A model generated the notes under the pieces. That model was given only the letters and a program-made list of their open reading frames with translations, was not told the DNA's origin and did no database searches. A stretch of 64,000 nt of DNA from Patescibacteria group bacterium (GTDB lineage: Bacteria > Patescibacteriota > Minisyncoccia > Phycocordibacterales > GCA-2747955), in NCBI GenBank assembly GCA_048538215.1, contig JBLYPV010000001.1, positions 547,526 through 611,525 of the forward strand, written 5' to 3'. Both the position numbers and the translations under genes were made by a program. Below, one piece after another: positions 1-64,000 of this stretch (positions are counted from its first letter, which is position 1; the number at the start of each line of letters is the position of its first letter).

Positions 1-364
1 TTTGGTACAGGTTGTGATGAGTATGTATTCGATAGAATAGTAAATGATCACTATTTAGGTAGTAAAACTATATGAATCATTCCATTCAAAAATCATATAA
101 GGGTCTGTACTAATTCACCTAAAAAAAGATTGTGATAAAAGAATATAAATCTTTAAAAAATTTGAAGTTAAAAAGATTATTATAAATATAAATTAGTTTA
201 TGATCTACTAGGTAAAACTACTTCTCTTAGAACTCTAAAACCTATATGTATAAGAAAATTTATTTTCAATATTTAAATTTACTGGAAGATAAAAATACTT
301 TTAGAAATGTTACTAATAAACTATTATGATAGAAATTTCAATTAACATATAAAGAGGATAACTT

Positions 365-1108
365 TTATTGAGAAATTTTAATGCCGATACGTGCAGTATG
401 ATCAATTCTACTTAATAAGATTTCATTACTCGTAAAATATTCGTCTACAGCCTTACGTGCACCTTCCCATGTTCCATAATCATCTATTATTAAAACTCCA
501 TTTTTACTTAAATTAGGATACAATACATCCAGTTCTTTTTTAGTTGATTCATACCAATCAGTATCCAGACGAAGTAAAGCAATTTTATCAGGAATATTTT
601 TACTCAATGTTATTTCCACTTTACCTTTCACATAGATAATTTTTTCTTGAGGAAAATTAGTAAGTTTCATATTATTCTTTACTTCTTCAATACTTGCATA
701 ACACCATTCATTATAATTTGCTTTTTTTGAATTACTCCATATTTCAAAAGTATTTTTAAAATTAGAACCAGCTATCACATCCACTTTTTTAGGTTCACTC
801 ATTCCTTCAAAAGTATCATATAAATATATTTTTCTATTTGTAATATTCTTATTTTCTAGAATATCAGCAATTAGCATCATATTTCCTCCTCTCCATACAC
901 CACATTCAACAAAATCACCAGGAATGTTATTATCAATAATATAATTAACAGCCTTATATAGAGCATAAAGACGTATTTTTGTTGTCATTGTATAAGTCTT
1001 ATACTTTTTATAAAGTTTTAAAAATTCTTTATCTATATCAATAACAGGATCTTTGTCTACTGGTCTAATAAGTTGCTTTAATCGACGTAGTAAATTTTTT
1101 ATATACAT
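365..1108 (-). CDS. TylF/MycF-family SAM-dependent (sugar) O-methyltransferase
   Basis: Motifs FVECGVWRGG and LRLDTDWYESTK are typical of the macrocin O-methyltransferase (TylF) family; AT-rich island. Confidence 0.6.
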   Translation of the reverse strand: MYIKNLLRRLKQLIRPVDKDPVIDIDKEFLKLYKKYKTYTMTTKIRLYALYKAVNYIIDNNIPGDFVECGVWRGGNMMLIADILENKNITNRKIYLYDTFEGMSEPKKVDVIAGSNFKNTFEIWSNSKKANYNEWCYASIEEVKNNMKLTNFPQEKIIYVKGKVEITLSKNIPDKIALLRLDTDWYESTKKELDVLYPNLSKNGVLIIDDYGTWEGARKAVDEYFTSNEILLSRIDHTARIGIKISQ

Positions 1109-1205
1109 AGATAGTGTATGAATTAATTATAGTTAGATTTCTATATAAAATTATTATAACTTATTCTTAGGATATTTAATAAATTAAAATAATTCCAATT
1201 TATAT

Positions 1206-1976
1206 TTAATGTATACTACTAAATATCATAGAAATTTTTTTTAATGTAGTTATAAGTTTTGAATTATTTTTAACTTCTACAATTTGTATACTATATTTAC
1301 TATTCAAATAGTCACAAATTTTCTTCTCTATAAGTTTAAATCTTTTGTTTGTCTCTATAAATTTTTGTTCAGTTAGATATTTCAAAATATGTGGTCGTCC
1401 TTTACTCCTAGATTCAGCCCTGTTTGTAGCAATAGAAATATCTGTGTCTAAAAAAATTATTGCTTTAGGTTTAGGTACTAATCTAAGATATTCCTTTTGT
1501 TTCAGACTAATATCTATTGATGAATTATGAATATAATAAAGAGAAAGAATTTTTTGAACTAGATATTCATCAATAAAAATTATTCGATTTTTATTGATAT
1601 CTTGATTTAAAAGTATGTGGTCAGTTATTGCGTCTTTAAATTTATCAATTAACCAAAATTTTTCAGCATTCTTTAGATCGCTTTCGTTAATTACATTTAA
1701 TATATGAGAAAGAAATAATTCTAACTCTTCCATATAACTACTACGAAGTAGTTGATCACGATAAAGATGGGTTATACGAGTGAGACGTAACTTAAAAGCG
1801 ATTTGTGGAGGAATATATCGTAATATTTTCGAAAAATGAACTTTAACCTCGGGACAATTTAATAAACCTCGAAATGCTGCAATTTCACCATTATCAAATA
1901 ATTTATTAAAAGTATAAATTTTTTTTACAAAGGTAGTTTTACCACTACCAGCTGGTCCTATAACTTCAATTATCAT
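1206..1976 (-). CDS. P-loop NTPase of unknown role (kinase/sulfotransferase-like) in glycan cluster
   Basis: N-terminal Walker A GPAGSGKTT; no other recognisable motif; sits in a carbohydrate-modification context. Confidence 0.4.
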   Translation of the reverse strand: MIIEVIGPAGSGKTTFVKKIYTFNKLFDNGEIAAFRGLLNCPEVKVHFSKILRYIPPQIAFKLRLTRITHLYRDQLLRSSYMEELELFLSHILNVINESDLKNAEKFWLIDKFKDAITDHILLNQDINKNRIIFIDEYLVQKILSLYYIHNSSIDISLKQKEYLRLVPKPKAIIFLDTDISIATNRAESRSKGRPHILKYLTEQKFIETNKRFKLIEKKICDYLNSKYSIQIVEVKNNSKLITTLKKISMIFSSIH

Positions 1977-1995
1977 ATATTTTGGTTATTCTACC

Positions 1996-2766
1996 ATGTT
2001 AAAGTTATTCTTCATGGGTGTTATATTATATAATATGCTTATGAAGAATCACAATATAAAAGAGTTTTATAATTACTTAGTTGATGGTGAGACATACAGA
2101 AAAGATTTTGAGTTTAATCGCTGGTTTATTCGGGCTCGCAACCGTGCTGAATATGCGATGACTTACATAGCTATAAAAGCTCATACAGCAAATCTTAAAT
2201 TTACAAACTGTCTAGAAGTAGGACCAGGTCCAGGTACATGGACTAGGCTTTTATATCGTACTAATCCAAAAGCAGAGTTTAATCTTGTAGATATTAGTGA
2301 AGCTATGAGGGAACAATTTTATTTGGAAATGCGAGATTTACCAAATGTAAAATATAGGGTACAGGATGTGATGGAATATAATGAGGATATTCAGTATGAT
2401 CTTTTCTTTTCTTCTCGTGCGGTAGAATACTTTGATGATAAGCCTGAGTTTTTTAAAAAGCTCTCAAAATTAGTTGTAAACAAAGGGAGAGGAGTAATGG
2501 TGACAAAAAATCCATATCACGGAGTACGAAAAGATAAAGGAGAAGCACACCAAGGGCAAATTCCTATGCCGAAAATGAAAGAGATGCTAGAAGATAATGG
2601 TTTTAGCAATGTGCGGTTTTACCCTGCGGTAATTCGTATTCCAATTATTAGTAGATTCACTTCAGAATTAGCTGAATATCTCTTTGAAAAGCGAATCAAT
2701 AGAGAAATAGATATACATAAAATTAATCGAATTGTAGAGAGTTATATTGTGACATTCACTAAATAA
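1996..2766 (+). CDS. class I SAM-dependent methyltransferase
   Basis: Motif I LEVGPGPGTWT followed by an acidic post-I residue (NLVDIS). Confidence 0.55.
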   Translation: MLKLFFMGVILYNMLMKNHNIKEFYNYLVDGETYRKDFEFNRWFIRARNRAEYAMTYIAIKAHTANLKFTNCLEVGPGPGTWTRLLYRTNPKAEFNLVDISEAMREQFYLEMRDLPNVKYRVQDVMEYNEDIQYDLFFSSRAVEYFDDKPEFFKKLSKLVVNKGRGVMVTKNPYHGVRKDKGEAHQGQIPMPKMKEMLEDNGFSNVRFYPAVIRIPIISRFTSELAEYLFEKRINREIDIHKINRIVESYIVTFTK

Positions 2767-2769
2767 GCT

Positions 2770-3825
2770 ATGCGTATATTCTATATTAGACGTGGTAGGC
2801 AAGATTTTTCTTTAATCAAACGAGTACACCATTCTTTTAATGATTTGTTGGAGTATCGAGATCAAGAAGGATTTTTTGATGCGTCTCTTGAGTATGCTGG
2901 AGAAGTAGAATATGTGTCATTGACGGATACTCAACGAATATTAGGTGAACAAAATTATGACTGGATTATTATCAATTGGAAACAACAAGGATTTAAAGAT
3001 TTAAATGATAGAGTGGAAGCTATTTTTAAATATTTAGGAAATACTAAAATAAATAAAGCCTTATTTATAAGTGCAGCCCGAGCTGATTATATGCTTCCAG
3101 ATTCCGTATTAAATAATTTTGATATTATATTTAAGCGAGAGCCGTATCGAGATAGAAATAAGTATAATATTTCGGATAAAAATAAAGCTAAGATTGTACC
3201 TACAATGATTCATTGTCCCTTTGTTCATTCTTCGAGAAATAATTTATTATCCAAAATGTTTCATTTAGTACGACCTATAATAAAGCCTTGCACAAAAGGA
3301 GAAGAAAAATATGAAGTAGGGTTCTCTGGAGCTGATGCGGCTGAACATTCCCTAAGAAGAGACGTATGGCAAAGAGTAGTAGATGAAGGATTTACAAAAA
3401 TAGGGGGGCTTCAACCCAATCCTTATACTAAAAGGCCTATACCAGAAAAATTAAAAGGCCCTAGATTGCGAGGTAAGGCCTATCGGGATTCTTTGTGCCA
3501 AGCGAAAATCAATCTAGCTCTTGATGGGATTGGAGAATATACTTTTAGACATCAAGAGCTTTTATATCTTGGTAAATTTATTTTGAGTAGCCCTACAATT
3601 CGTGATCTTGAATTGCCGATACCGCTTGAGGAAGGAAAGCACTATGTGGCCTTTGATGACCTGGATGATATGGTGGCTAAGATCCGCTACTACTTGGAGC
3701 ACGAAGAAGAGCGTAAGCAAATTGCACAGGCAGGCAAAGAATTGTTTGACACATACTACAACCCCGAAAAACATGGGCAAGAAATTAGAAAAGCCCTAAA
3801 ATCAAGTAACAAACTAGGATTTTAG
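2770..3825 (+). CDS. CgeB-like / GT1-like glycosyltransferase (DUF3880-type)
   Basis: C-terminal HYVAFDDLDDMVAKIRYYLEHEEERKQIAQAG resembles the GT1/CgeB C-terminal helix region. Confidence 0.4.
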   Translation: MRIFYIRRGRQDFSLIKRVHHSFNDLLEYRDQEGFFDASLEYAGEVEYVSLTDTQRILGEQNYDWIIINWKQQGFKDLNDRVEAIFKYLGNTKINKALFISAARADYMLPDSVLNNFDIIFKREPYRDRNKYNISDKNKAKIVPTMIHCPFVHSSRNNLLSKMFHLVRPIIKPCTKGEEKYEVGFSGADAAEHSLRRDVWQRVVDEGFTKIGGLQPNPYTKRPIPEKLKGPRLRGKAYRDSLCQAKINLALDGIGEYTFRHQELLYLGKFILSSPTIRDLELPIPLEEGKHYVAFDDLDDMVAKIRYYLEHEEERKQIAQAGKELFDTYYNPEKHGQEIRKALKSSNKLGF

Positions 3826-3844
3826 TAGAGGTAATCGTACGGAG

Positions 3845-5089
3845 CTACTTAATATGACGGAATATGCTTATTACAAATAAGCTGTTGACCATTTCTGATA
3901 TGAGTATGGCATAGACTGCCCCCCAAATTCCATAAATAGGTAAAAGAATATAGAGTAAGGTAAGCTTAAGCCCCACACCACTTATTTGGAAAATATATAA
4001 CCAGGTCGTTTTTTCGTGAGCTATAAGAGTTTGACCATAGACACTAAAAGGGAGTACTAGGATACTGAGAGCTAGTATTTGTGAAATGATGACCGACTCT
4101 GGGTATTGAGGGAAAATCAGACCGAATATTAAGGGAGCTAATATTATATATGATAAGACAATTGCTGATACAATACTAAAAAAGAGCCACACTTTATGAG
4201 GGAGGGTATATTGTAAGGAGGTAAAATCACGCTGAGACACCTTGGGGAGTACTAGTGATTGTACTACCCCTAGCATATTTTTTGTGTACTTGGTGGGCAT
4301 TTGAGCAATGGTGTAGGTGGCGACGGCTATAGCTCCAAGGTGATGATAGACAAGCACCTTATCAATATGTTGTGCGACTCGTCCTGCAAGTTGCATAATA
4401 CTGAGGTGCTTGCTAAAGAGAGTTTTACCCCTAAAGGTATCTATTCTTGGTGGATTAAAGTAGTATAGAGTAATAAAATAGCCAGTAGTTACTGCTATAA
4501 GGTGGCCAGCAAAATACGCAGTAATTAAGATAAGTGGATTTTGTGTAATAAGCACTGTTCCAATAAGAATAAAGGTAGGGATTATCATCCGAAAAACATT
4601 TATAAAGGCACTAAATTTATAAGCTTGCTTGCCAATAATAAATGGTCGATAGAGGTGAAAACTTTCAATGAAAGGGGAAAAAGTGCCCACAATTAGAAAA
4701 GCAATAGCTAAGGTGGAGTTGTCATTGATAAAGTAGTATAGAGCTATCGAAAGGCTTGCAAGTGTGATACCTATATTCCACTTGAGCTTAGTGCGTACTC
4801 CACTCCACAGAGCCCCATCATTCCCCCGGGCTGTTTCGGTTGTAACGGTAGTGGCTAATCCCGTGAGAGTAAAAGCTCCTAGGATAGTCGCGGTAGAGAT
4901 TATAAATTGATAGAGCCCAAGATTTTCTTTATCTATTAGATTAGCCAGTATGATAACAGTAAGTGCTCCTAAGCTTAATTCAATAAAAGATCCAAGGCTG
5001 AGCCAAAAGCCACCATGGGCAAGATAGCGGGTATCAGTGTGTGTATAGCGATTGAGCTTATCAAAAATGGTATCGATGTGGGTACGCAT
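3845..5089 (-). CDS. Wzx-like oligosaccharide flippase (MOP superfamily polysaccharide biosynthesis protein)
   Basis: About 12 predicted TM helices; N-terminus (RYTHTDTRYLAHGGFWLSLG...TETARG) is typical of Wzx/RfbX; paralogous to 6904-8142. Confidence 0.6.
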   Translation of the reverse strand: MRTHIDTIFDKLNRYTHTDTRYLAHGGFWLSLGSFIELSLGALTVIILANLIDKENLGLYQFIISTATILGAFTLTGLATTVTTETARGNDGALWSGVRTKLKWNIGITLASLSIALYYFINDNSTLAIAFLIVGTFSPFIESFHLYRPFIIGKQAYKFSAFINVFRMIIPTFILIGTVLITQNPLILITAYFAGHLIAVTTGYFITLYYFNPPRIDTFRGKTLFSKHLSIMQLAGRVAQHIDKVLVYHHLGAIAVATYTIAQMPTKYTKNMLGVVQSLVLPKVSQRDFTSLQYTLPHKVWLFFSIVSAIVLSYIILAPLIFGLIFPQYPESVIISQILALSILVLPFSVYGQTLIAHEKTTWLYIFQISGVGLKLTLLYILLPIYGIWGAVYAILISEMVNSLFVISIFRHIK

Positions 5090-8632: not shown

Positions 8633-10051
8633 ATGGCAATGCCTTCTCGCCGAATGATTTTGAGCCTCATTTTTATAGGATTCGTGCTATTTGTATTGGG
8701 GGTGCTTGTGTGGTATTTTAGCCCAGCTTTTTTTGGTCCGAGCACGCAAGATGGTGATAGCGGAAGGGGCGGAGGTATCAATCTATTTCCTTTTGGTGAC
8801 AGTGGGGGCGAAGGAGATCAGGGAGCAGGAGGGCAAGTGGTAGACCAGGGAGATACAGATACTCAAGATAAAGAGCAGGATCTTGGGCGTATGCCTCGCT
8901 TGCGGATGGTGAGCAAGGGGCCAGTGATTGCGGCTACGATGAGCCAAGCTTCATCGCATAGTGGTATCGTGGGGCCTTCGGCTACAAGCACTAATGATGC
9001 GGGGATAGAAAATAGTATTCGCTATGTAGAGCTGGGCACAGGGCATATATATGAGGCATCTACTTTTAATCGAGACATTACTCGGCTCTCCAATACCACT
9101 ATTCCTCGAATCAATGAAGCACAATTTGTGACACTAGATCGTATCTTGATGCGCTACACTGATGACTTGGGGAATTACAAGCTTTTCTCTGCTGAATTGG
9201 CTGATAACGCATCTCCAAGCGCCTCTACTCCCAAGCGCTTGCAGGGTATTTTCTTGCCCGATGGAGTGCGCTATATAGATGTGAGCCCTGAAGGAAAGCT
9301 GGTGTGGCTTCAGAATATGAGCAATGGTGTGCGTGTGGTGACCACCAATGCTCTCGGAGAAAATCAAAAACAAATATACTCCTCACCACTTTCTGAGTGG
9401 CGGATCGGCTGGTATGGATCAAATAATGAGGTGCTACTCCAGAGCACTCCTTCGTATGAGAGCTATGGAATGGCCTATACTTTAGATGCATCAAATGGAA
9501 GCTTGCGCCCTTATGGAGAAGCGCGCAAGGCACTAGGGGTGCTTCCTACCCCTGATCGTAAGCGAGCGCTCGTATCACTCAAGGCGGATGGACAGACACG
9601 ACTTTTTCTTTGGCGACAAGAGAGTAATGAGTATGTAGATCTTACCCCTCGTACTTTTGTCGAAAAATGTGTGTACGCCTCGGTACGAGATGAATTTTAT
9701 TGCGCAAGCCCGATAAGCCCTATAGCTCGTGCAGAGCCAGATTTGTGGTATCAAGGAGTGAGTAGCTATCGAGATGATATTTGGGTAATAGATGGACAAA
9801 CAGGGGCATCTGAGCTTGCACTAAGCCCTAGTGGACTCAGTGATGATCCAATCGATATTATTGATTTGGCCATTTCACCTGATGAGCAATTTTTGTACTT
9901 TCGAGATAAAGATACTCGCTCACTTTGGACATTCCAGATTGATTATATTCGCGGAAGTACTGAATCATCTAATTCGAGTGAGGTAGAATCGGCATCTGAG
10001 CCAGATTCTGGGCTAGACGCTGATACCGACGAAGAGCCATTCTTTGAATAG
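8633..10051 (+). CDS. membrane-anchored/secreted hypothetical protein (possible beta-propeller), acidic C-terminus
   Basis: N-terminal TM helix, Gly/Asp-rich linker, long beta-rich body, acidic tail. Confidence 0.4.
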   Translation: MAMPSRRMILSLIFIGFVLFVLGVLVWYFSPAFFGPSTQDGDSGRGGGINLFPFGDSGGEGDQGAGGQVVDQGDTDTQDKEQDLGRMPRLRMVSKGPVIAATMSQASSHSGIVGPSATSTNDAGIENSIRYVELGTGHIYEASTFNRDITRLSNTTIPRINEAQFVTLDRILMRYTDDLGNYKLFSAELADNASPSASTPKRLQGIFLPDGVRYIDVSPEGKLVWLQNMSNGVRVVTTNALGENQKQIYSSPLSEWRIGWYGSNNEVLLQSTPSYESYGMAYTLDASNGSLRPYGEARKALGVLPTPDRKRALVSLKADGQTRLFLWRQESNEYVDLTPRTFVEKCVYASVRDEFYCASPISPIARAEPDLWYQGVSSYRDDIWVIDGQTGASELALSPSGLSDDPIDIIDLAISPDEQFLYFRDKDTRSLWTFQIDYIRGSTESSNSSEVESASEPDSGLDADTDEEPFFE

Positions 10052-20784: not shown

Positions 20785-22827
20785 ATGGAGGGTATGCTAT
20801 ACTCCTTTGGTATGAAGCTTAATGTGAAGCAAGAAGAGGCAGCGAGGGCACTTGAAGGGCCAGTTTTGGTACTTGCAGGGGCTGGTGCAGGGAAAACAGG
20901 CACGCTTACTGAGCGAATGATTAATCTCATTAAAAATGGCACACCGCCACAATCTATTTTGGCACTTACCTTTACCAACAAGGCTGCCGGCGAGATGAAG
21001 GATCGGGTGCGCGCGTCGGTACAAAAGATGCATAAAACAAGTGCAGAGCTGGAGCTAGCATGGAGCTTGCCTTGGGTGGGCACTTTTCATGCCTTGGGGG
21101 TGATGATTCTTAAAGAACAGCACCGAGAGCTTGGAATTAAGAAGCACTTTAGTATCTACGACAGAGATGATGCACGGAGAGCTATTAAGGAGGCAATCAA
21201 GCAGTGTGACTTGGATCCTAAGGCATGGGATACCAAGCAAATTTTGGGCTTTATTTCTTCTCATAAGGGTAAAAATATTGCACTAGAGGATATCCGTGCC
21301 CAAGGAGATTCTTCTTATTATTTTGATACACTGATTCAAATTTGGGAGCGCTATGAGGAAATTAAGCGTCAAGACGGAGCATTTGATTTTGATGATCTAC
21401 TACTTGAGACTGCCAAGCTTTTGGCAAAACGAGAAGATATTCGCAGGCTCTACCAAACACGCTTTCGCTACATTCACATAGATGAGTATCAAGATACTAA
21501 TCGGGTGCAATATCAAATTGTAAAGCTCTTAATTAATCCTGAGACGCAAAATATTTTTTGTGTAGGAGATCCTGATCAGCTTATTTATGGCTGGCGGGGG
21601 GCCGAGATAGGTAATATTATGCGCTTTGAAAAAGACTTTAAAGATAGTAAGACGATTATTCTAGAGCAGAATTATCGTTCTATGGCTAATATTATTACTG
21701 CTTCAAATGAAGTCATTGCACATAATACTAATCGCTTTAAAAAGGAGCTACAGAGCACTAAAGATGATGGTGAGCTTATAAGCTTGTATGGCGCGTATGA
21801 TGCTCGTGAAGAAGCACGGTGGCTTGCTCGAGAAATATCTATGCTCATCGAATCTGGGAAAGATCCAGGCAGTATGGCGGTCTTGTATCGAGCTAATTTT
21901 CAATCCCGGGCTCTTGAGGAAGCTTGCTTGAGTGCGAATATCCCTTACCAGGTGTTGGGTACTAAATTTTTTGATCGTAGTGAGGTCAAGGATGTAATGG
22001 CGTATATTCGAGCAGCTTTTAATCCCGATGCACTCATTGATGTGCGACGAGTAATAAATATGCCTCGGCGGGGGATTGGCAAAGTGGCTCTGGTAAAAAT
22101 ATTTTCTCATCAAACAGAATCATTACCTGCCAAAACAGCTCAAGCCCTCTCCCTTTTTTATATTATATTGGATGATATTGCTTCTTTTGCTCAAGAAAAC
22201 TCCCCGAGTGAGACGGTGCAGTATGTCATTGAGCGATCAGGGCTTGAAAAGATGTATCGGGCTAGTGGGAAAGAAGAAGACTTGGAACGACTTGCAAATA
22301 TGTATGAGCTCGGGGTGGTAGCAGAAAAATATGATACCCTCGATCAAGAAAATGCCTTGGAAAAATTTCTTGAGGAGATTGCCCTTTTGGGGGATCAAGA
22401 TACTAAGCAGGATGAACAAGCTTCTGTGAAGCTTATGACGATTCATGCTGCTAAAGGGCTTGAATTTGACACTGTGTTTCTCACAGGATGTGAAGAGGAT
22501 TTGTTTAGCCCACGAAGGGAGATGGATCAGAAGGCTATCCGTGAGAAAAGCGAGGAAGAACGCCGACTTTTTTATGTAGCAATGACACGCGCTCGAGATA
22601 AGCTCTATCTCTCGTGGGCATCCTTGCGTGAGGTTTTTGGGACTACGATGGTCAATACACTTGTATCATTTGTGGGGGATATCCCACCTGCGCTCATACA
22701 AGAAGAAGCCCCCATACACAGCGGGACTCTTGCAAGTGGAGCTACTTTGGGACGCTATGATGATTATGATGGCATAGATACGATAGCTGATGATGGAGAA
22801 CAAACTATCGAGCTTTTGGATTGGTAG
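20785..22827 (+). CDS. pcrA: UvrD/PcrA/Rep-family ATP-dependent DNA helicase
   Basis: GAGAGKT Walker A, IHIDEYQDTN motif II, YRSMANI, VLYRANFQSRALEE, MTIHAAKGLEFDTVFL. Confidence 0.85.
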   Translation: MEGMLYSFGMKLNVKQEEAARALEGPVLVLAGAGAGKTGTLTERMINLIKNGTPPQSILALTFTNKAAGEMKDRVRASVQKMHKTSAELELAWSLPWVGTFHALGVMILKEQHRELGIKKHFSIYDRDDARRAIKEAIKQCDLDPKAWDTKQILGFISSHKGKNIALEDIRAQGDSSYYFDTLIQIWERYEEIKRQDGAFDFDDLLLETAKLLAKREDIRRLYQTRFRYIHIDEYQDTNRVQYQIVKLLINPETQNIFCVGDPDQLIYGWRGAEIGNIMRFEKDFKDSKTIILEQNYRSMANIITASNEVIAHNTNRFKKELQSTKDDGELISLYGAYDAREEARWLAREISMLIESGKDPGSMAVLYRANFQSRALEEACLSANIPYQVLGTKFFDRSEVKDVMAYIRAAFNPDALIDVRRVINMPRRGIGKVALVKIFSHQTESLPAKTAQALSLFYIILDDIASFAQENSPSETVQYVIERSGLEKMYRASGKEEDLERLANMYELGVVAEKYDTLDQENALEKFLEEIALLGDQDTKQDEQASVKLMTIHAAKGLEFDTVFLTGCEEDLFSPRREMDQKAIREKSEEERRLFYVAMTRARDKLYLSWASLREVFGTTMVNTLVSFVGDIPPALIQEEAPIHSGTLASGATLGRYDDYDGIDTIADDGEQTIELLDW

Positions 22828-22835
22828 GGATTTTA

Positions 22836-22881
22836 AAATTAGGTATTAATTACTACACGTGTAGTAATTAATACCTAATTT
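22836..22881. repeat. 46-bp perfect palindrome centred on CACGTG (copy 1 of 3)
   Basis: aaattaggtattaattactaCACGTGtagtaattaatacctaattt. Confidence 0.9.
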
Positions 22882-22897
22882 ATGTTATAGTGGAGTA

Positions 22898-23482
22898 ATG
22901 AAATTAGGCAGAAGAGAGAAGGCGGTACTCGAAGAGCTACTCGCGTTCCCTGGAGATTATGCTATGAGCTTTTTGTTGTCTCGTGGGTCACTGATGCGGA
23001 TGTATGATATTGGAATTGAACGAAGAGAAGAGCGGGCTCTTAAGCGACAACAGTACTATGATCTTAAAAAGCGGAAAAAATTATTACTAGAGCGTCTCGA
23101 GCGCAAGGGCCTCGTCACTTTAGTGCCAGATGGGGATGATATACAAGTCAAACTGACCAAAACTGGCCATTCTTTTGCTGGGGTAGCTCAATTGCTCAAT
23201 GCCTCGAATAAGAAAAATGATGCCAAGTGGGATGGCAAGTGGACACTGGTGATGTTTGATATGCCAAAAGATCATTCGTATGAGCGTCAATCATTGGTGC
23301 ACTTGCTCAAACAAGTGGGCTTTATTCAAATTCAGATGTCGAATTATATTTTTCCATATGAGGTGCCTGCAGTGCAAGAATTTTTACTTCGTAATCCAAG
23401 TTTGGGTACTTATTGCCAGATATTTCGAGGAAAGTATCTAGGGGATGATACTAAATTACGAGAGAAATTTGATTTAAGATAA
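22898..23482 (+). CDS. small wHTH protein with C-terminal Cas2/VapD-like ferredoxin-fold domain (PaaX-like?)
   Basis: N-terminus predicted helical (REKAVLEELLAF...); C-terminus WTLVMFDMPKD..ERQSLVHLLKQVGFIQIQMSNYIF resembles the beta1-alpha-beta core of Cas2/PaaX_C; flanked by palindromes. Confidence 0.35.
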   Translation: MKLGRREKAVLEELLAFPGDYAMSFLLSRGSLMRMYDIGIERREERALKRQQYYDLKKRKKLLLERLERKGLVTLVPDGDDIQVKLTKTGHSFAGVAQLLNASNKKNDAKWDGKWTLVMFDMPKDHSYERQSLVHLLKQVGFIQIQMSNYIFPYEVPAVQEFLLRNPSLGTYCQIFRGKYLGDDTKLREKFDLR

Positions 23483-23513
23483 AATTGACTCTATTTAAAA
23501 TATATAGGGTATT

Positions 23514-23561
23514 AAAATTAGGTATTAATTACTACACGTGTAGGGATTAATGCCTAATTTT
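23514..23561. repeat. CACGTG-centred palindrome, copy 2 (imperfect right arm)
   Basis: aaaattaggtattaattactaCACGTGtagggattaatgcctaatttt. Confidence 0.85.
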
Positions 23562-23593
23562 GCTGGGGTGGGGGGTGGAGGTGGTATAATAAA

Positions 23594-24403
23594 ATGATGA
23601 AGGCAAAAAAATCTCTGGGCCAAAATTTTCTCACTCATACTTCCACTCTAGAAAAAATAGCCGGTCAAGCATTGCCTGGTATATTAGTACTTGAGGTGGG
23701 GCCAGGAAAGGGCGCGCTTACTCAAAAATTATTATCTTCTGGGCTACAAGTCCTTGCGGTAGAGAAAGATGAACAATTAGTAGAACACTTACGAGAAAAA
23801 TTTGCCCCAGCGATTCGATCGCAGTCGCTTATCCTGGTATCAGGAGACATTCTTCACTTGGATATACCACTTTTGGTGGGCTACGAGCCCTATCAGATTA
23901 TCGCTAACATACCTTACTACATTACAGGGCACTTTATGCGTATGGTATTAGAATCGGACGCCCTTCCTCAGTGTATGGTGCTCTTACTTCAGCTTGAGGT
24001 AGTAGACCGCATGCTCGCTCGAGATGGAAAACACTCCTTGCTTTCTTTGTCGGTACAGGCATTTGGGCAGGTGTCACGCTTGTGCAAGGTGCCTGCACAT
24101 TACTTCAAGCCAAGCCCTAAAGTGGATTCGGCTGTCGTACGGATAGATGATATTAGCACTAGCTATTTTGAGGATGCTGGGATCACTCCTGAGCAATTCT
24201 TTGCTCTTATTCGCCAGGGCTTTAGTAGTAAACGCAAGACATTCGTCAATAATATGAAAGCTCACAAGCTATATAGCACCTACGACTGGGCTCAGATACT
24301 AGAGACACACAAGATAGACAAGCGAGTGCGGGCTGAGGATATTAGCTTGGAGGATTGGGCAAAGCTCGTGCAAGCTACACACTTGAGCCGTGGTAGAGAA
24401 TAA
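23594..24403 (+). CDS. rsmA: 16S rRNA (adenine1518/1519-N6)-dimethyltransferase
   Basis: SLGQNFL...LEVGPGKGALT...NIPY motifs. Confidence 0.85.
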   Translation: MMKAKKSLGQNFLTHTSTLEKIAGQALPGILVLEVGPGKGALTQKLLSSGLQVLAVEKDEQLVEHLREKFAPAIRSQSLILVSGDILHLDIPLLVGYEPYQIIANIPYYITGHFMRMVLESDALPQCMVLLLQLEVVDRMLARDGKHSLLSLSVQAFGQVSRLCKVPAHYFKPSPKVDSAVVRIDDISTSYFEDAGITPEQFFALIRQGFSSKRKTFVNNMKAHKLYSTYDWAQILETHKIDKRVRAEDISLEDWAKLVQATHLSRGRE

Positions 24404-31704: not shown

Positions 31705-31911
31705 AAATATATATCACAATATATTGACAATTTGTCAAAATTAAGGTAATCTTTTGTTAATGGTACTTTGATACGCAATCTTAATTTTCCGGATTTTCTT
31801 CCGTGAAATGCAGCTTTTTGTTGCCAAAGGCAATAAAAAGCTGCATTTCACCCGAAGGGCGTGCAGTATTCTTATATACACAAGCCCTTCGGGGCAACGA
31901 AAGGGATCAGG

Positions 31912-35064: not shown

Positions 35065-35092
35065 CTAAATATTAGCTAAGATACTATATTAA

Positions 35093-35126
35093 GAAAACAA
35101 CCGCACAAAATTGTGCGGTTGTTTTC
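35093..35126 (+). terminator. rho-independent terminator
   Basis: gaaaacaaccgcacaaaattgtgcggttgttttc. Confidence 0.6.
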
Positions 35127-35182
35127 TTTAGATAATTGAGCGGTAGGGGCGAGGTGTGCTATAATCGACACTGTAATTAATA

Positions 35183-37121: not shown

Positions 37122-38018
37122 TTAAGTATTGCCGTGATATTTACTGTGCACCTCTTTGAGAAATTTATCTGAAAGCTTGGTGTATACCTGGGTGGTATTG
37201 ATACTAGCGTGCCCTAGGAGCATCTGTACCGAGCGAATATCAGCACCATTGTGGAGCAGGTCGGTAGCAAAATAGTGGCGTAGATCATGTGGAGTCACCC
37301 TGCGCATAATCCCTGCTTCTCGTGCGCGCTTGTTGAGAATCCGCTGGACGGCTCGTGGGTAGATAGCACTTCCTGTTTTCATCACAAAAAGTGCAGGCGA
37401 GAGAATAGGGAGATCTGCTTGGTGTCGAAGATCCAGATAGGCGCGCGTGGCTCTGCGGGCAGCTTGGGAGATAAACACGAGGCGTAATTTCTCGCCTTTT
37501 CCACGGATGGTTAGCTCATCGCGAGACAAATCGATGTCTTCTTTGAGGCTACAAAGCTCGGACACGCGAAGCCCTGTGGAGTAAAGGAATTCGAGAATTG
37601 CTTTGTCGCGAATGTCTTCAAGATCGCTACCGCTTGGGGCGCTCATCAGGCGATTAAATTCATCACGGGTGATTACATCAAGCTCTCGCTGGGCTGTTTG
37701 GGCGAGCTCGATTTTGCTAGCTTCGAGCGTGCTTATATCCCGCTTGGCAAGGTATTTTAAAAAAGAGCGAAGGGCGATGAGGTATTTGTTTTGTGTGGTT
37801 TTTTTCATTGTTCCTTCACGAGTAGGGCTTCTATTGAGCGCGATGCGAAAGGATCGGACAGATTCGGCGGTGATATCTTGAACGCGAGTGATCTGTGCGT
37901 ATTCAAAATACGCTTTGATGTAGCGTTCGTACATAGTAATAGTATGCACACTGCGCCCCTTTTCAATTTCGAGGTACTCAAGGAATTCACCAAGGTAGTG
38001 AGTAGTATTCTGCGACAT
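37122..38018 (-). CDS. xerC: XerC/XerD-family tyrosine recombinase
   Basis: C-terminal HDLRHYFATDLLHNGADIRSVQMLLGHASINTTQVYT (R..HxxR..Y); start set at MSQNTTHYL. Confidence 0.8.
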   Translation of the reverse strand: MSQNTTHYLGEFLEYLEIEKGRSVHTITMYERYIKAYFEYAQITRVQDITAESVRSFRIALNRSPTREGTMKKTTQNKYLIALRSFLKYLAKRDISTLEASKIELAQTAQRELDVITRDEFNRLMSAPSGSDLEDIRDKAILEFLYSTGLRVSELCSLKEDIDLSRDELTIRGKGEKLRLVFISQAARRATRAYLDLRHQADLPILSPALFVMKTGSAIYPRAVQRILNKRAREAGIMRRVTPHDLRHYFATDLLHNGADIRSVQMLLGHASINTTQVYTKLSDKFLKEVHSKYHGNT

Positions 38019-38135
38019 AATTGTATTGTAATCTAAAAATTGGAAATTAAAAATCAAAATGGATTGAGTGGGAGTGTTTTAATGACATTGCTTATTTTTT
38101 AATGACATTGCTTATATAGGGGACATATAGGGCAG

Positions 38136-38187
38136 AAAAATTAGGTAATAATCCCAACACGTGTAGGGATTATTACCTAATTTTTTT
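38136..38187. repeat. CACGTG-centred palindrome, copy 3
   Basis: aaaaattaggtaataatcccaaCACGTGtagggattattacctaattttt; inner arms differ from copy 1 but stay complementary. Confidence 0.85.
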
Positions 38188-38227
38188 ATGTGTTGCAAAT
38201 ATCCTATTTTTAGGTAGAATATCGGCT

Positions 38228-38494
38228 ATGTCAAAACGAACAGAGCTTAGCAACAAAGCACTTACTGAAGTGGATGGGGTAAATAATCCAGGCAGTACTG
38301 CTTCTCAGATTGCTATTTTGAGCCAACGAATTGCAAACCTACAAGAACACTTAGTGAGCAATAAAAAAGATAAACATTCTCGCCGAGGCCTCTTGCAAAT
38401 GGTATCGAAGCGAAGGAAGCTTATCAAATATCTTAAGCGTACCGATGAGCAAGCTTGGGGCGAATTAGCTAGCACGCTTGGCCTCAAGGCCTAA
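38228..38494 (+). CDS. rpsO: 30S ribosomal protein S15
   Basis: Typical S15 length and sequence (...HSRRGLLQMVSKRRKLIKYLKR...). Confidence 0.9.
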   Translation: MSKRTELSNKALTEVDGVNNPGSTASQIAILSQRIANLQEHLVSNKKDKHSRRGLLQMVSKRRKLIKYLKRTDEQAWGELASTLGLKA

Positions 38495-43600: not shown

Positions 43601-43915
43601 AATTATTGATTTGTACTAATAGTAAACTCATTCTATTTTATCATTTTTAACTCAAGCGATAGGGGAAATCGTAGCCAAGTTTTCAACAGAGGCAAACTGG
43701 TAGCTCGTGAGCTAGTAGCCTGTGTGCTCGTGAGCCCGTGGGCTAGTATGCTGGTTGGAACATATGGTAAAAGTTGTCCGAGCTCGGACAACTTTTACCA
43801 TAGATTTTTTCTATTATATTTTGTCTTTATTTTTTAGAAATGGAGAGAAAGTTTTTAGAAATGAAGGGAAGGAGGTACTACAGAATAAGCTCAAAATGGT
43901 ATAATAAATCTTGTT

Positions 43916-50358: not shown

Positions 50359-50369
50359 GTCTCATTTAT

Positions 50370-50425
50370 CCCAGACACCCGATGTCTGGGAAACTGTGGA
50401 AAACCCAGACACCCGGTGTCTGGGG
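50370..50425. repeat. REP doublet (REPIN) 1: two palindromic REPs cccagacacccgRtgtctggg
   Basis: cccagacacccgatgtctggg-aaactgtggaaaa-cccagacacccggtgtctgggg. Confidence 0.85.
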
Positions 50426-50444
50426 TGGATGATAGGATTGGGGT

Positions 50445-51089
50445 ATGTCTTTGCGTTTTGGCAAACAACATATTGGAGGCATATACCACGTGTTTAACCG
50501 TGGTACTGACAAGCGCATTATTTTTACTGATAAACCGGATAAAGATAGATTTCTTTTATTGATGAAATTAATGAATAGTAAGGAGAATATTGGAAGCATG
50601 AGAGATTTTTTGGAAGGTAATCGATTGCAAAAAGAAGAAGAGCTAGAATCGAGCCCTCTAGTACGGATCATTGCTTTTTCATTGCAAGGCAATCATTACC
50701 ATCTATTGCTCGAACAAATTGAAGAAAATGGGGTGCAATTATTTATGCATAAATTAGGAATGGCTTATGCAAAATATTTTAACAGTAGACAGCAGAGAAC
50801 GGGCACTTTGTATCAAGGTAGATATAAGTATGTTGTTGCAGAAAGTCAGCATAGTGTAATGCGTCTTATCGCTTATATCAATCGCAATGAGGAAATGCAC
50901 AAAAGGAAGCGAGAAGAAGATTACTCAAGTAGAAAATGGTATGTCAGCAAAGAAGAGTACCCAATGGGATTGGAGCTGTATAAGGATCTGTTTGGGGACT
51001 ATGAGAAGCAAGAGGAGGATATTATTTTGCAATATAAACGACAACGCGATATTGATAGCAAGCACGATAGAGAGATATTCCTTGAATGA
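50445..51089 (+). CDS. REP-associated tyrosine transposase (RAYT; IS200/IS605 TnpA-like Y1 HUH transposase)
   Basis: HUH motif NHYHLLLE, catalytic Tyr region GTLYQGRYKYVV, GIYHVFNRG N-terminus; flanked on both sides by identical REP doublets. Confidence 0.7.
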   Translation: MSLRFGKQHIGGIYHVFNRGTDKRIIFTDKPDKDRFLLLMKLMNSKENIGSMRDFLEGNRLQKEEELESSPLVRIIAFSLQGNHYHLLLEQIEENGVQLFMHKLGMAYAKYFNSRQQRTGTLYQGRYKYVVAESQHSVMRLIAYINRNEEMHKRKREEDYSSRKWYVSKEEYPMGLELYKDLFGDYEKQEEDIILQYKRQRDIDSKHDREIFLE

Positions 51090-51090
51090 T

Positions 51091-51146
51091 CCCAGACACC
51101 CGATGTCTGGGAAACTGTGGAAAACCCAGACACCCGGTGTCTGGGG
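51091..51146. repeat. REP doublet (REPIN) 2, identical to copy 1
   Basis: Same 56-bp sequence directly after the RAYT stop codon. Confidence 0.85.
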
Positions 51147-51165
51147 TGGGGATGAATAGGGGCGT

Positions 51166-54583: not shown

Positions 54584-54604
54584 TGAGCCTGTGAGCTGGT
54601 TTAA

Positions 54605-56704
<2,100 letters not shown>

Positions 56705-63907: not shown

Positions 63908-64000
63908 TGCTTGTGGTCTGATATTCTTATGTAAAACTCTCTATTGATAATCAATAGAGAGTTTTACTTTTGGATCATTTAGTAGTATTCTTTTTTGTGA

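Follow-up and report, generated by a model that had tools for sequence, protein, structure and literature searches.

The window analyzed here, a 64,000-nt stretch of a Patescibacteria contig (JBLYPV010000001.1), contains three long palindromes, two of which bracket a gene for a PaaX-like protein. The gene (22898..23482, + strand) codes for 194 amino acids with a winged helix and a Cas2-like domain (PaaX_M; Pfam PF20803), and its product is proposed below to be the cognate regulator of the palindromes. Copy 1 (22836..22881), the proposed upstream operator of the gene, and copy 2 (23514..23561), the downstream bracket of the cassette, are 679 bp apart. Copy 3 (38136..38187), at a distance of 14.6 kb, is a solo copy in the spacer between a divergent XerC/D-like recombinase gene and rpsO; none of the three is assigned to a strand. 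An earlier examination of the DNA by its letters alone (the sequence-only reading) had described this layout, together with the shared outer arms and the CACGTG centre, and our analysis confirmed each of these points.

The palindromes are 46–50 bp long, and all of them are centred on CACGTG. Copy 1 is a perfect palindrome of 46 bp with no loop or spacer. Copy 2 shares its left arm with copy 1 but is imperfect, since complementarity fails at three positions of its right arm, twice as T-G and once as A-G. In copy 3, whose end may be set at 38185 or 38187, one A-A pair is mismatched. All copies have ACACGTGT at the centre and AAATTAGGTAWTAAT as outer arms. They diverge mainly at positions ±6–8 and ±12 from the centre, where copies 1 and 3 show compensation for most of the changes. 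Self-complementarity of the differing inner arms, as claimed in the sequence-only reading, is complete in copy 1, nearly so in copy 3, and no more than partial in copy 2. The pattern AAATTAGGTA-N20-34-TACCTAATTT was matched twice in the window and never in 100 shuffles, and a 15-mer half-site gave six arm matches against 0.68 expected. GGTA-N26-TACC, found in copies 1 and 3, occurs seven times in the whole window, with an expectation of 0.4. The CACGTG hexamer itself is unremarkable in the window (seven observed, 4.3 expected), and an explanation as a restriction site was dropped because the hexamer is neither avoided nor enriched. A search for AATTAGG-N10-14-CACGTG-N10-14-CCTAATT in the GTDB representative genomes returned nothing but three sites in Bacteroidota, all of them unrelated and due to tandem repeats or chance. 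The Rfam scan of the window gave only two tRNAs, with no RNA family at the palindromes and no clustered regularly interspaced short palindromic repeat (CRISPR).

The PaaX-like protein matched PaaX_M, the central Cas2-like domain of PaaX, with an E value of 7.5e-14 and a winged helix weakly, and the winged-helix/Cas2-fold assignment of the sequence-only reading is confirmed in this form. The protein is 100% identical to ACKKL4_03035, a protein of a metagenome-assembled genome at NCBI. In an AlphaFold2 model built on a 70-sequence alignment (predicted local distance difference test score of 77.6 overall and at least 90 in the Cas2-like part), the N-terminal half consists of helices followed by a β-hairpin wing, and the C-terminal half is a ferredoxin-like domain. 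The best match of the model in the Protein Data Bank was Escherichia coli PaaX (8a39, E = 3e-5), followed by Cas2, Rv0674, and VapD. The family profile also matches MarR-type winged helices and Cas2, and its segment FDvP...R...GF..QkSvy aligns to the N terminus of Cas2, including the β1 aspartate. This aspartate and nine other residues are invariant across the 70 sequences. The score with the Cas2 family model is 21.5 bits, just under its cut-off of 24.5 bits. Neither PaaX_C nor Y1_Tnp was matched in Pfam, and no paa genes were found in the neighborhood, which comprises uvrD, rsmA, and rpsO.

The association of this gene with palindromes is a property of the family. A protein-guided metagenome scan provided 80 loci (denoted by L numbers) with distant relatives of 27–44% identity, out of >553 matches. 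Strict palindromes, defined by at least 13 paired positions per arm and a loop of at most 4, were present at the 5′ flanks of 28 of 76 homologues versus 19 of 377 other genes from the same loci (odds ratio 11, P = 1e-12) and at the 3′ flanks of 39 of 80 homologues versus 26 of 372 other genes (odds ratio 12.7, P = 2e-17). A second test was independent of palindrome detection and compared, in 70 nonredundant loci, the 160 nt before the start codon with the 135 nt surrounding and following the stop codon. The two flanks shared a segment above the 99th percentile of between-locus controls in 52 loci, and their similarity exceeded the 95th percentile in 60. The shared palindrome or quasi-palindrome is locus-specific; its centres include ACGGCCGT (the commonest), CGATCG, GCATATGC, CCATGG, CTATAG, CTCGAG, and CACGTG. 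In the BMS3Abin15 genome, each of three paralogues has its own palindrome arms. The two closest homologues, L004 and L005 (51–53% identity), lie on short ENA contigs. The L004 gene is bracketed by two identical palindromes ATAATAGTACGAAAACTACACGTGTAGTTTTCGTACTATTAT, and the 3′ flank of L005 carries AATAGTAATTAAAACTACACCTGTAGTTTTAATTACTATT. These sites keep the core CTACACGTGTAG, which in L005 has one centre substitution (CTACACCTGTAG, CACCTG), yet their outer arms are entirely unlike those of the window copies and perfectly symmetric. The element, whose absence from homologous genomes would have spoken against a function according to the sequence-only reading, is thus carried by the homologues. 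Copies beyond the two brackets are rare: in the flanking DNA of 80-odd other loci, only L026 has a third one, after the next gene cysS. Further sites with the distal motif of each locus mostly turned out to be the second bracket, overlooked by the palindrome detector, and they gave no evidence of a local regulon. At 50% identity, the family comprises 4,087 cluster representatives with E ≤ 1e-10, which are labelled variously as "hypothetical," "PaaX," or "Cas2" by the sources. No description of the family or its layout in the candidate phyla radiation (CPR) was found in the ~8 million open-access papers and preprints covered, and the family is apparently undescribed in these ultra-small Patescibacteria.

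Because orthologous and distantly homologous genes are bracketed likewise, the repeat appears to be functional and selected, and the view that selection acts on it is strongly supported in the sense of a functional repeat tied to the enclosed gene. The sequence-only reading had deduced selection on the palindrome or hairpin from the compensated changes. Compensation alone is no proof of hairpin selection; many members of the family are symmetric only at the centre and the distal arms. The count of compensated versus single changes between brackets is biased by palindrome selection and was not used for this purpose.

The alignment of ~45 upstream and downstream sites on their centres revealed a common plan of ~36 bp, with a conserved G/C-containing centre, an AT-rich tract, and conserved distal arms. 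Within a locus, the two copies agree best at positions ±1–4, with G or C at ±3 in 98% of the sites, and least at positions ±5–7. The tract at ±8–12 is AT-rich (7–16% GC). The conserved distal arms span ±13–18, and the symmetry is highest at ±13–16 (0.9–1.0). All similarity decays past ±18, and that between the brackets ends at the palindrome edge. The differences among the three window copies fall exactly in the loose zones of this plan. Members with a nonpalindromic middle (e.g., L051, L063, L064, L085, and L078) keep the centre and distal arms in both copies, which is what would be predicted from protein contacts and not from selection on a hairpin.

The upstream site is connected with the promoter of the gene. 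In most loci, a -10-like box, often TGnTATAAT, starts 16–37 nt 3′ of the upstream palindrome centre, and in the remaining loci it is located inside the right arm, with the ATG ~6–8 nt further. The upstream site therefore overlaps the predicted -35 or -10 element of the gene's own promoter in most loci. In these CPR genomes, promoters resemble an extended -10 box (TGnTATAAT) 6–8 nt ahead of the start codon, a spacing that implies widespread leaderless mRNAs. In the window, the extended -10 element TGTTATAGT (22883..22891, + strand), read directly from the sequence, starts 1 nt past copy 1, and its -10 box begins 28 nt 3′ of the copy 1 centre. As the centre is ~40 nt upstream of the predicted transcription start, copy 1 covers the -35 region. 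The element is only 6 nt from the ATG at 22898, and the regulator mRNA therefore also looks leaderless. Since the upstream copy is located 5′ of the predicted promoter, a function common to both copies must act on DNA, at least for the transcript of the regulator. The 3′ copy is present at 19 of 29 loci with a convergent next gene and at 24 of 42 with a co-directional one. In L087, a BMS3Abin15 paralogue, the right half of the site and the adjacent promoter (GCTAGTAAAGGGAATATTTGTTTGGTATAAT) are repeated exactly after the gene (9860–9925 and 10700–10790), so that the repeated unit can be operator plus promoter, not the palindrome alone.

Here, we propose a role for the palindromes as paired cognate operators of an autoregulatory PaaX-type protein with a winged helix and a Cas2-like domain, encoded by the gene at 22898–23482. 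We consider this reading probable, and any hairpin or terminator activity of the palindromes would be secondary. Operators of a dimeric regulator were one of three functions suggested by the sequence-only reading, besides bidirectional terminators or insulators and the ends of a mobile cassette, and they fit best with the PaaX-like protein, the promoter overlap of the upstream copy, and the geometry of the PaaX operator. The PaaX of E. coli binds TGATTC-N27-GAATCA, a split palindrome of 39 bp, and keeps RNA polymerase off its own promoter, Px, which is thereby repressed (PMC9493321). The span of this operator equals that of the palindromes described here (GGTA-N26-TACC); the agreement is in geometry only, and the sequences are unrelated. 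The PaaX of E. coli and Pseudomonas, which controls the phenylacetate catabolon, shares with the present protein the N-terminal winged helix and the Cas2-like PaaX_M domain, which is central in PaaX. In contrast, the present protein lacks the C-terminal domain and neighboring paa genes, its sites are palindromic over the full length with a conserved G/C-containing centre, and the paired sites bracket the regulator gene, a pairing not described for PaaX. Three features are new relative to PaaX: the bracketing by a pair of sites, their full palindromy, and their conserved centre.

In the proposed mechanism, a dimer of the protein would bind the site of ~36–46 bp. Its two winged-helix domains may read the distal arms (TAGGTA...TACCTA, ±13–18), and the Cas2-like dimer core may span the AT-rich tracts and the conserved centre. 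The Cas2-like dimer is placed over the middle of the 36-bp site by analogy with the Cas1–Cas2 integrase, in which a DNA duplex of fixed length runs along the Cas2 dimer. Binding to copy 1, over the -35 and upstream region of the gene's own promoter, would result in autoregulation, most probably repression. Copy 2 could form a DNA loop of ~680 bp in cooperation with copy 1, act as a roadblock to read-through when bound, and/or regulate rsmA. Repression loops at deo, gal, and lac with their auxiliary operators likewise involve two identical operators, one of them at the promoter and the other at a distance of a few hundred base pairs, whereas the second operator here is systematically located just past the stop codon of the regulator itself. 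Copy 3 would be a recently acquired extra site beside the rpsO promoter. The near-perfect palindromes can form RNA or DNA hairpins as well, and these may help to end the uvrD and regulator transcripts. A repression loop, an insulating roadblock for a dosage-sensitive regulator in a compact genome, and hairpin-assisted transcript ending would all be compatible with the near-universal 3′ site.

Several points weigh against this proposal. A winged-helix dimer cannot read all 36–46 bp, and the whole-length dyad symmetry in many loci and in the orthologues points to an added constraint or mechanism. It suggests an extra force, either selection on a hairpin or cruciform or the "perfecting" of quasi-palindromes by template switching. 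The 3′ copy is not needed for autoregulation alone, and because it occurs with convergent and co-directional neighbors alike, it is not simply an operator of the downstream promoter. The protein is devoid of the PaaX C-terminal domain and scores far under the cut-off of the PaaX equivalog TIGR02277 (22.2 versus 264.55 bits). The invariant Cas2 signature, including the β1 aspartate, makes a nuclease role possible. Finally, copy 3 is not attainable by point mutation, and some copy-and-paste process therefore exists.

The genes around the brackets are conserved neighbors of the cassette. The uvrD-type helicase gene (20785..22827; Pfam UvrD-helicase and UvrD_C) ends with its stop codon 8 nt ahead of copy 1, which is also a possible 3′ hairpin for uvrD. 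On the other side, rsmA/ksgA (23594..24403; Pfam RrnaAD), coding for the 16S rRNA dimethyladenosine transferase, is preceded by the extended -10 element TGGTATAAT (23582..23590, + strand), again read directly from the sequence. Copy 2 is ~20 nt from this element and ~24 nt upstream of the rsmA -10 box. The two neighbors and the PaaX-like gene are all on the + strand. The order of uvrD, the PaaX-like gene, and rsmA recurs in L009 (29% identity), where the degenerate sites share TTGTCGTTCGCCAA. In L086 (33% identity), the order is rearranged to rsmA, ubiA, the PaaX-like gene, uvrD, and xer, and uvrD adjoins the PaaX-like gene here as in L009. As synteny is kept down to 29–33% identity, the gene is regarded as old, vertically inherited, and not freely moving. 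In L004, the RsmA is 72% identical to that of the window, but its gene is on the strand opposite to the PaaX-like gene, and the same strand as that of rsmA encodes DW* at the contig end, in agreement with the UvrD C terminus in the window (...LLDW*). From these two observations, the gene order seems kept and the PaaX-like gene inverted between its palindromes; this inversion is tentative, the uvrD side consisting of only two codons and a stop and the rsmA side being solid. Together with the gain of copy 3 described below, it nevertheless marks the DNA as dynamic.

The XerC/D-like tyrosine recombinase gene (37122..38057, − strand; Pfam Phage_integrase and Phage_int_SAM_1) is divergent from rpsO (38228..38494, + strand; Pfam Ribosomal_S15), which codes for ribosomal protein S15. 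The rpsO promoter TTGCAA-N16-TAGAAT (38193..38220, + strand) is conserved in the relatives L089, L091, L092, and L093, and the distance from the end of copy 3 to its -35 box is 7 nt. The promoter is 7 nt ahead of the ATG at 38228, and the rpsO transcript therefore also looks leaderless; rpsO is a possible additional target of the regulator. Copy 3 itself is absent from the xer–rpsO spacer of the same four relatives (RpsO 81, 80, 77, and 70% identical in L092, L093, L089, and L091, respectively), so that its conservation across relatives was rejected in favor of a lineage-specific gain. The L091 spacer looks like an empty site, with GATTTAGG^TTGCAT in place of the AAATTAGG[47 nt]TTGCAA of the window. 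The spacer of L089 contains a different inverted repeat of ~20 bp (GCCCTGCTTTTTGTCTGCC ... GGCAGACAAAAAGCAGGG, 455–552) with a loop of ~60 nt, and structured inserts appear to be gained particularly often in the xer–rpsO spacer. In the window, a tandem direct repeat TTAATGACATTGCTTAT, in two copies 21 nt apart (38079–38116), is located between the start of the XerC/D-like gene and copy 3.

The alternatives to paired operators differ in how they account for these data. The palindromes might act mainly as RNA hairpins or DNA cruciforms independent of the enclosed protein, as bidirectional terminators, insulators, or mRNA-stabilizing 3′ hairpins that isolate a stand-alone unit, which we consider unlikely. 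All copies indeed fold into very stable RNA hairpins on either strand (−23 to −30 kcal/mol, z = −5.5 to −7.8; copy 1, −25.7 kcal/mol, z = −7.2). The imperfections of copy 2 are G-U-compatible solely on the transcribed strand, and its fold is better on the + strand (−23.2 kcal/mol) than on the − strand (−15.9 kcal/mol). A terminator scan flagged copy 1 only. Like bidirectional intrinsic terminators, the palindromes are stable intergenic hairpins, and in some of them the stem is preceded by a run of A and followed by a run of T, as in copy 3 (A5 and T7) and in L004, L007, and L058. Retention of whole-length symmetry in the orthologues and the presence of the 3′ copy even with convergent neighbors also accord with a hairpin function. 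However, such a function gives no reason for the 5′ and 3′ hairpins of one gene to share their sequence, nor for their specificity to a single protein family. T-tract polarity is random (11 T-rich versus 13 A-rich right arms among 47 downstream copies), only nine of these 47 have at least five T in the 8 nt past the palindrome, and some copies, among them copy 3, lie between divergent genes, where no terminator is needed. Many quasi-palindromes would fold poorly, yet keep their centre and distal arms. Ordinary terminators in the window and its relatives differ in having loops of 3–5 nt and an A-tract/stem/T-tract shape, whereas the palindromes have no loop, no consistent T-tract polarity, and the same sequence at both gene ends. 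Bidirectional termination is thus unsupported as the defining property. A purely accidental origin, with the palindromes as a chance or neutral and functionless leftover of local duplication, is hardly credible, and the comparative data effectively refute it. The window shows no more than three copies and the exact motif is absent from the GTDB representative genomes, but the shuffled sequences gave no match, the same bracket is found in the orthologues and in 52 of 70 distant homologues, and the site plan is conserved across loci.

A role in DNA mobility has to be weighed against the same data. It appears improbable that the protein and palindromes form a selfish system similar to repetitive extragenic palindromes (REPs) and their associated tyrosine transposases (RAYTs), in which a winged-helix-guided Cas2-like nuclease would cut, copy, or maintain palindromes that spread. 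The layout mirrors that of REP/RAYT (REPIN) systems, where a single-copy, vertically inherited gene has cognate palindromic repeats on both sides and further intergenic copies, and where each paralogue has its own repeat family. The absence of copy 3 from four relatives, the empty-site look of L091, the third copy in L026, the invariant Cas2 signature residues, and the copying mechanism implied by perfect palindromes also favor it. In contrast to RAYTs, the protein has no Y1/HUH or other transposase fold. The repeats are single zero-loop palindromes of 36–46 bp instead of short GC-rich REP doublets, the copy number is very low (one solo copy in the 64 kb of the window and the one extra copy in L026), and the upstream repeat is consistently built into the promoter. 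Copy 3, moreover, has diverged from copies 1 and 2 specifically where the site plan is loosely constrained, as expected of a binding site under selection. Also rather unlikely is a self-contained module in which the winged-helix-guided Cas2-like domain nicks or processes the palindromes as hairpins or cruciforms, leading to inversion, excision, or the seeding of new copies as at rpsO. The Cas2 signature FDxP...R...GF..QxSxY, as in the Cas2 of the Cas1–Cas2 integrase, is retained; unlike that system, no CRISPR array was detected by Rfam, the score is under the Cas2 cut-off, and no cas1 adjoins the gene among the annotated flanking genes, the other open reading frames of the window not having been scanned for it. 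A CRISPR–Cas system was rejected because of repeat distances of 679 bp and 14.6 kb, the lack of a CRISPR in the Rfam scan, and Cas2 model scores below the cut-off. Very unlikely, in our opinion, are site-specific recombination sites (dif/pdif- or att-like, for a Xer-type recombinase) with the gene as an invertible or excisable cassette. The inverted arms around a centre of 6–8 bp, which is the best-conserved part between copies, resemble a recombinase core; copy 3 abuts the XerC/D-like gene, a xer-like gene is located 3 kb from the orthologous cassette in L086, and the PaaX-like gene is apparently inverted in L004. Symmetric sites have no orientation preference between the brackets (terminal-inverted versus direct repeat), and asymmetric sites show a weak trend to the direct one (20 direct versus nine inverted, P = 0.06). 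Nevertheless, ordinary homologous recombination between two palindromic copies can also invert a gene, and the deep synteny indicates that the cassette is not freely mobile. The AT tract at ±8–12 and the distal zone at ±13–18 do not match the 11-6-11 plan of the 28-bp Xer/dif site, a single host recombinase would not recognize paralogue-specific arms, and no third palindrome was found near xer in L086. An element of the miniature inverted-repeat transposable element or insertion sequence (IS) type was rejected, as similarity ends at about ±18, the orientation is not consistent, signatures of terminal inverted repeats or target-site duplications are lacking, and the synteny with uvrD and rsmA is kept. 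The mobile cassette of the sequence-only reading is hence mostly contradicted by the deep synteny and the lack of these signatures, whereas the lineage-specific copy 3 and the apparent inversion in L004 are in its favor.

Patescibacteria represent a large share of bacterial diversity, and their gene regulation is almost wholly uncharacterized. If the palindromes are paired operators, most of the loci examined have a probable binding site twice beside the gene and would provide many predicted regulator/operator pairs, each with its own specificity. These pairs are testable without culturing and could serve as orthogonal parts in synthetic biology. The layout also raises the mechanistic question of why a regulator gene has its site at both ends. 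The significance would be much greater if the Cas2-like domain were catalytically active on the palindromes. In that case, a nicking module would represent a widespread type of patescibacterial system, REP/RAYT-like or cassette-type and built on a Cas2 fold, and it might shed light on the role of Cas2 before CRISPR.

The window contains other repeats. The region 50368–51149 looks like a textbook REP/RAYT system, with an open reading frame (50445–51089; 214 amino acids, Pfam Y1_Tnp, IS200-like) flanked on both sides by a doublet of the palindrome CCCAGACACCCGRTGTCTGGG; the two doublets (50368–50428 and 51089–51149) are 61 nt long and 100% identical. A third, rearranged doublet (54603–54663) is located past a type IV pilin/prepilin-peptidase cluster, just before ligA. 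A second family of zero-loop palindromes, TATGGTAAAAGTTGTCCGAG|CTCGGACAACTTTTACCATA, occurs at 10897–10935 and 43763–43802, in the divergent intergenic regions of tRNA-Gly/CBS-domain gene and recA/ftsK, respectively. They carry GGTA...TACC in the register of the CACGTG family (N26 and N25), and they may be bound by the same regulator, a link for which this motif is only suggestive. The recA–ftsK spacer of the relative L089 does not contain this palindrome.

A small palindrome, TACTAATAGTA (TACTAGTAGTA in L089), was found in a conserved stretch by the recA start (43601–43650 in the window and 9167–9215 in L089) and is a candidate LexA-type or other operator. Its half-sites TACTA/TAGTA also flank CACGTG in copy 1, which may be a coincidence. 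Other unique long intergenic palindromes, with arms of 20–28 nt and loops of 0–3 nt, are located at 13189–13244, 31803–31851, 35085–35134, and 63929–63969; they include the 56-bp ATGAGCCAAAAAGAAAAACTCCCT|AGGGAG... before a UPF0102/NERD gene and one before clpP. The genome seems unusually tolerant of long perfect palindromes. The first 4000 nt of the window (1–4000) have a GC content of 0.30, compared with ~0.43–0.47 elsewhere, and may be a foreign or otherwise atypical segment.

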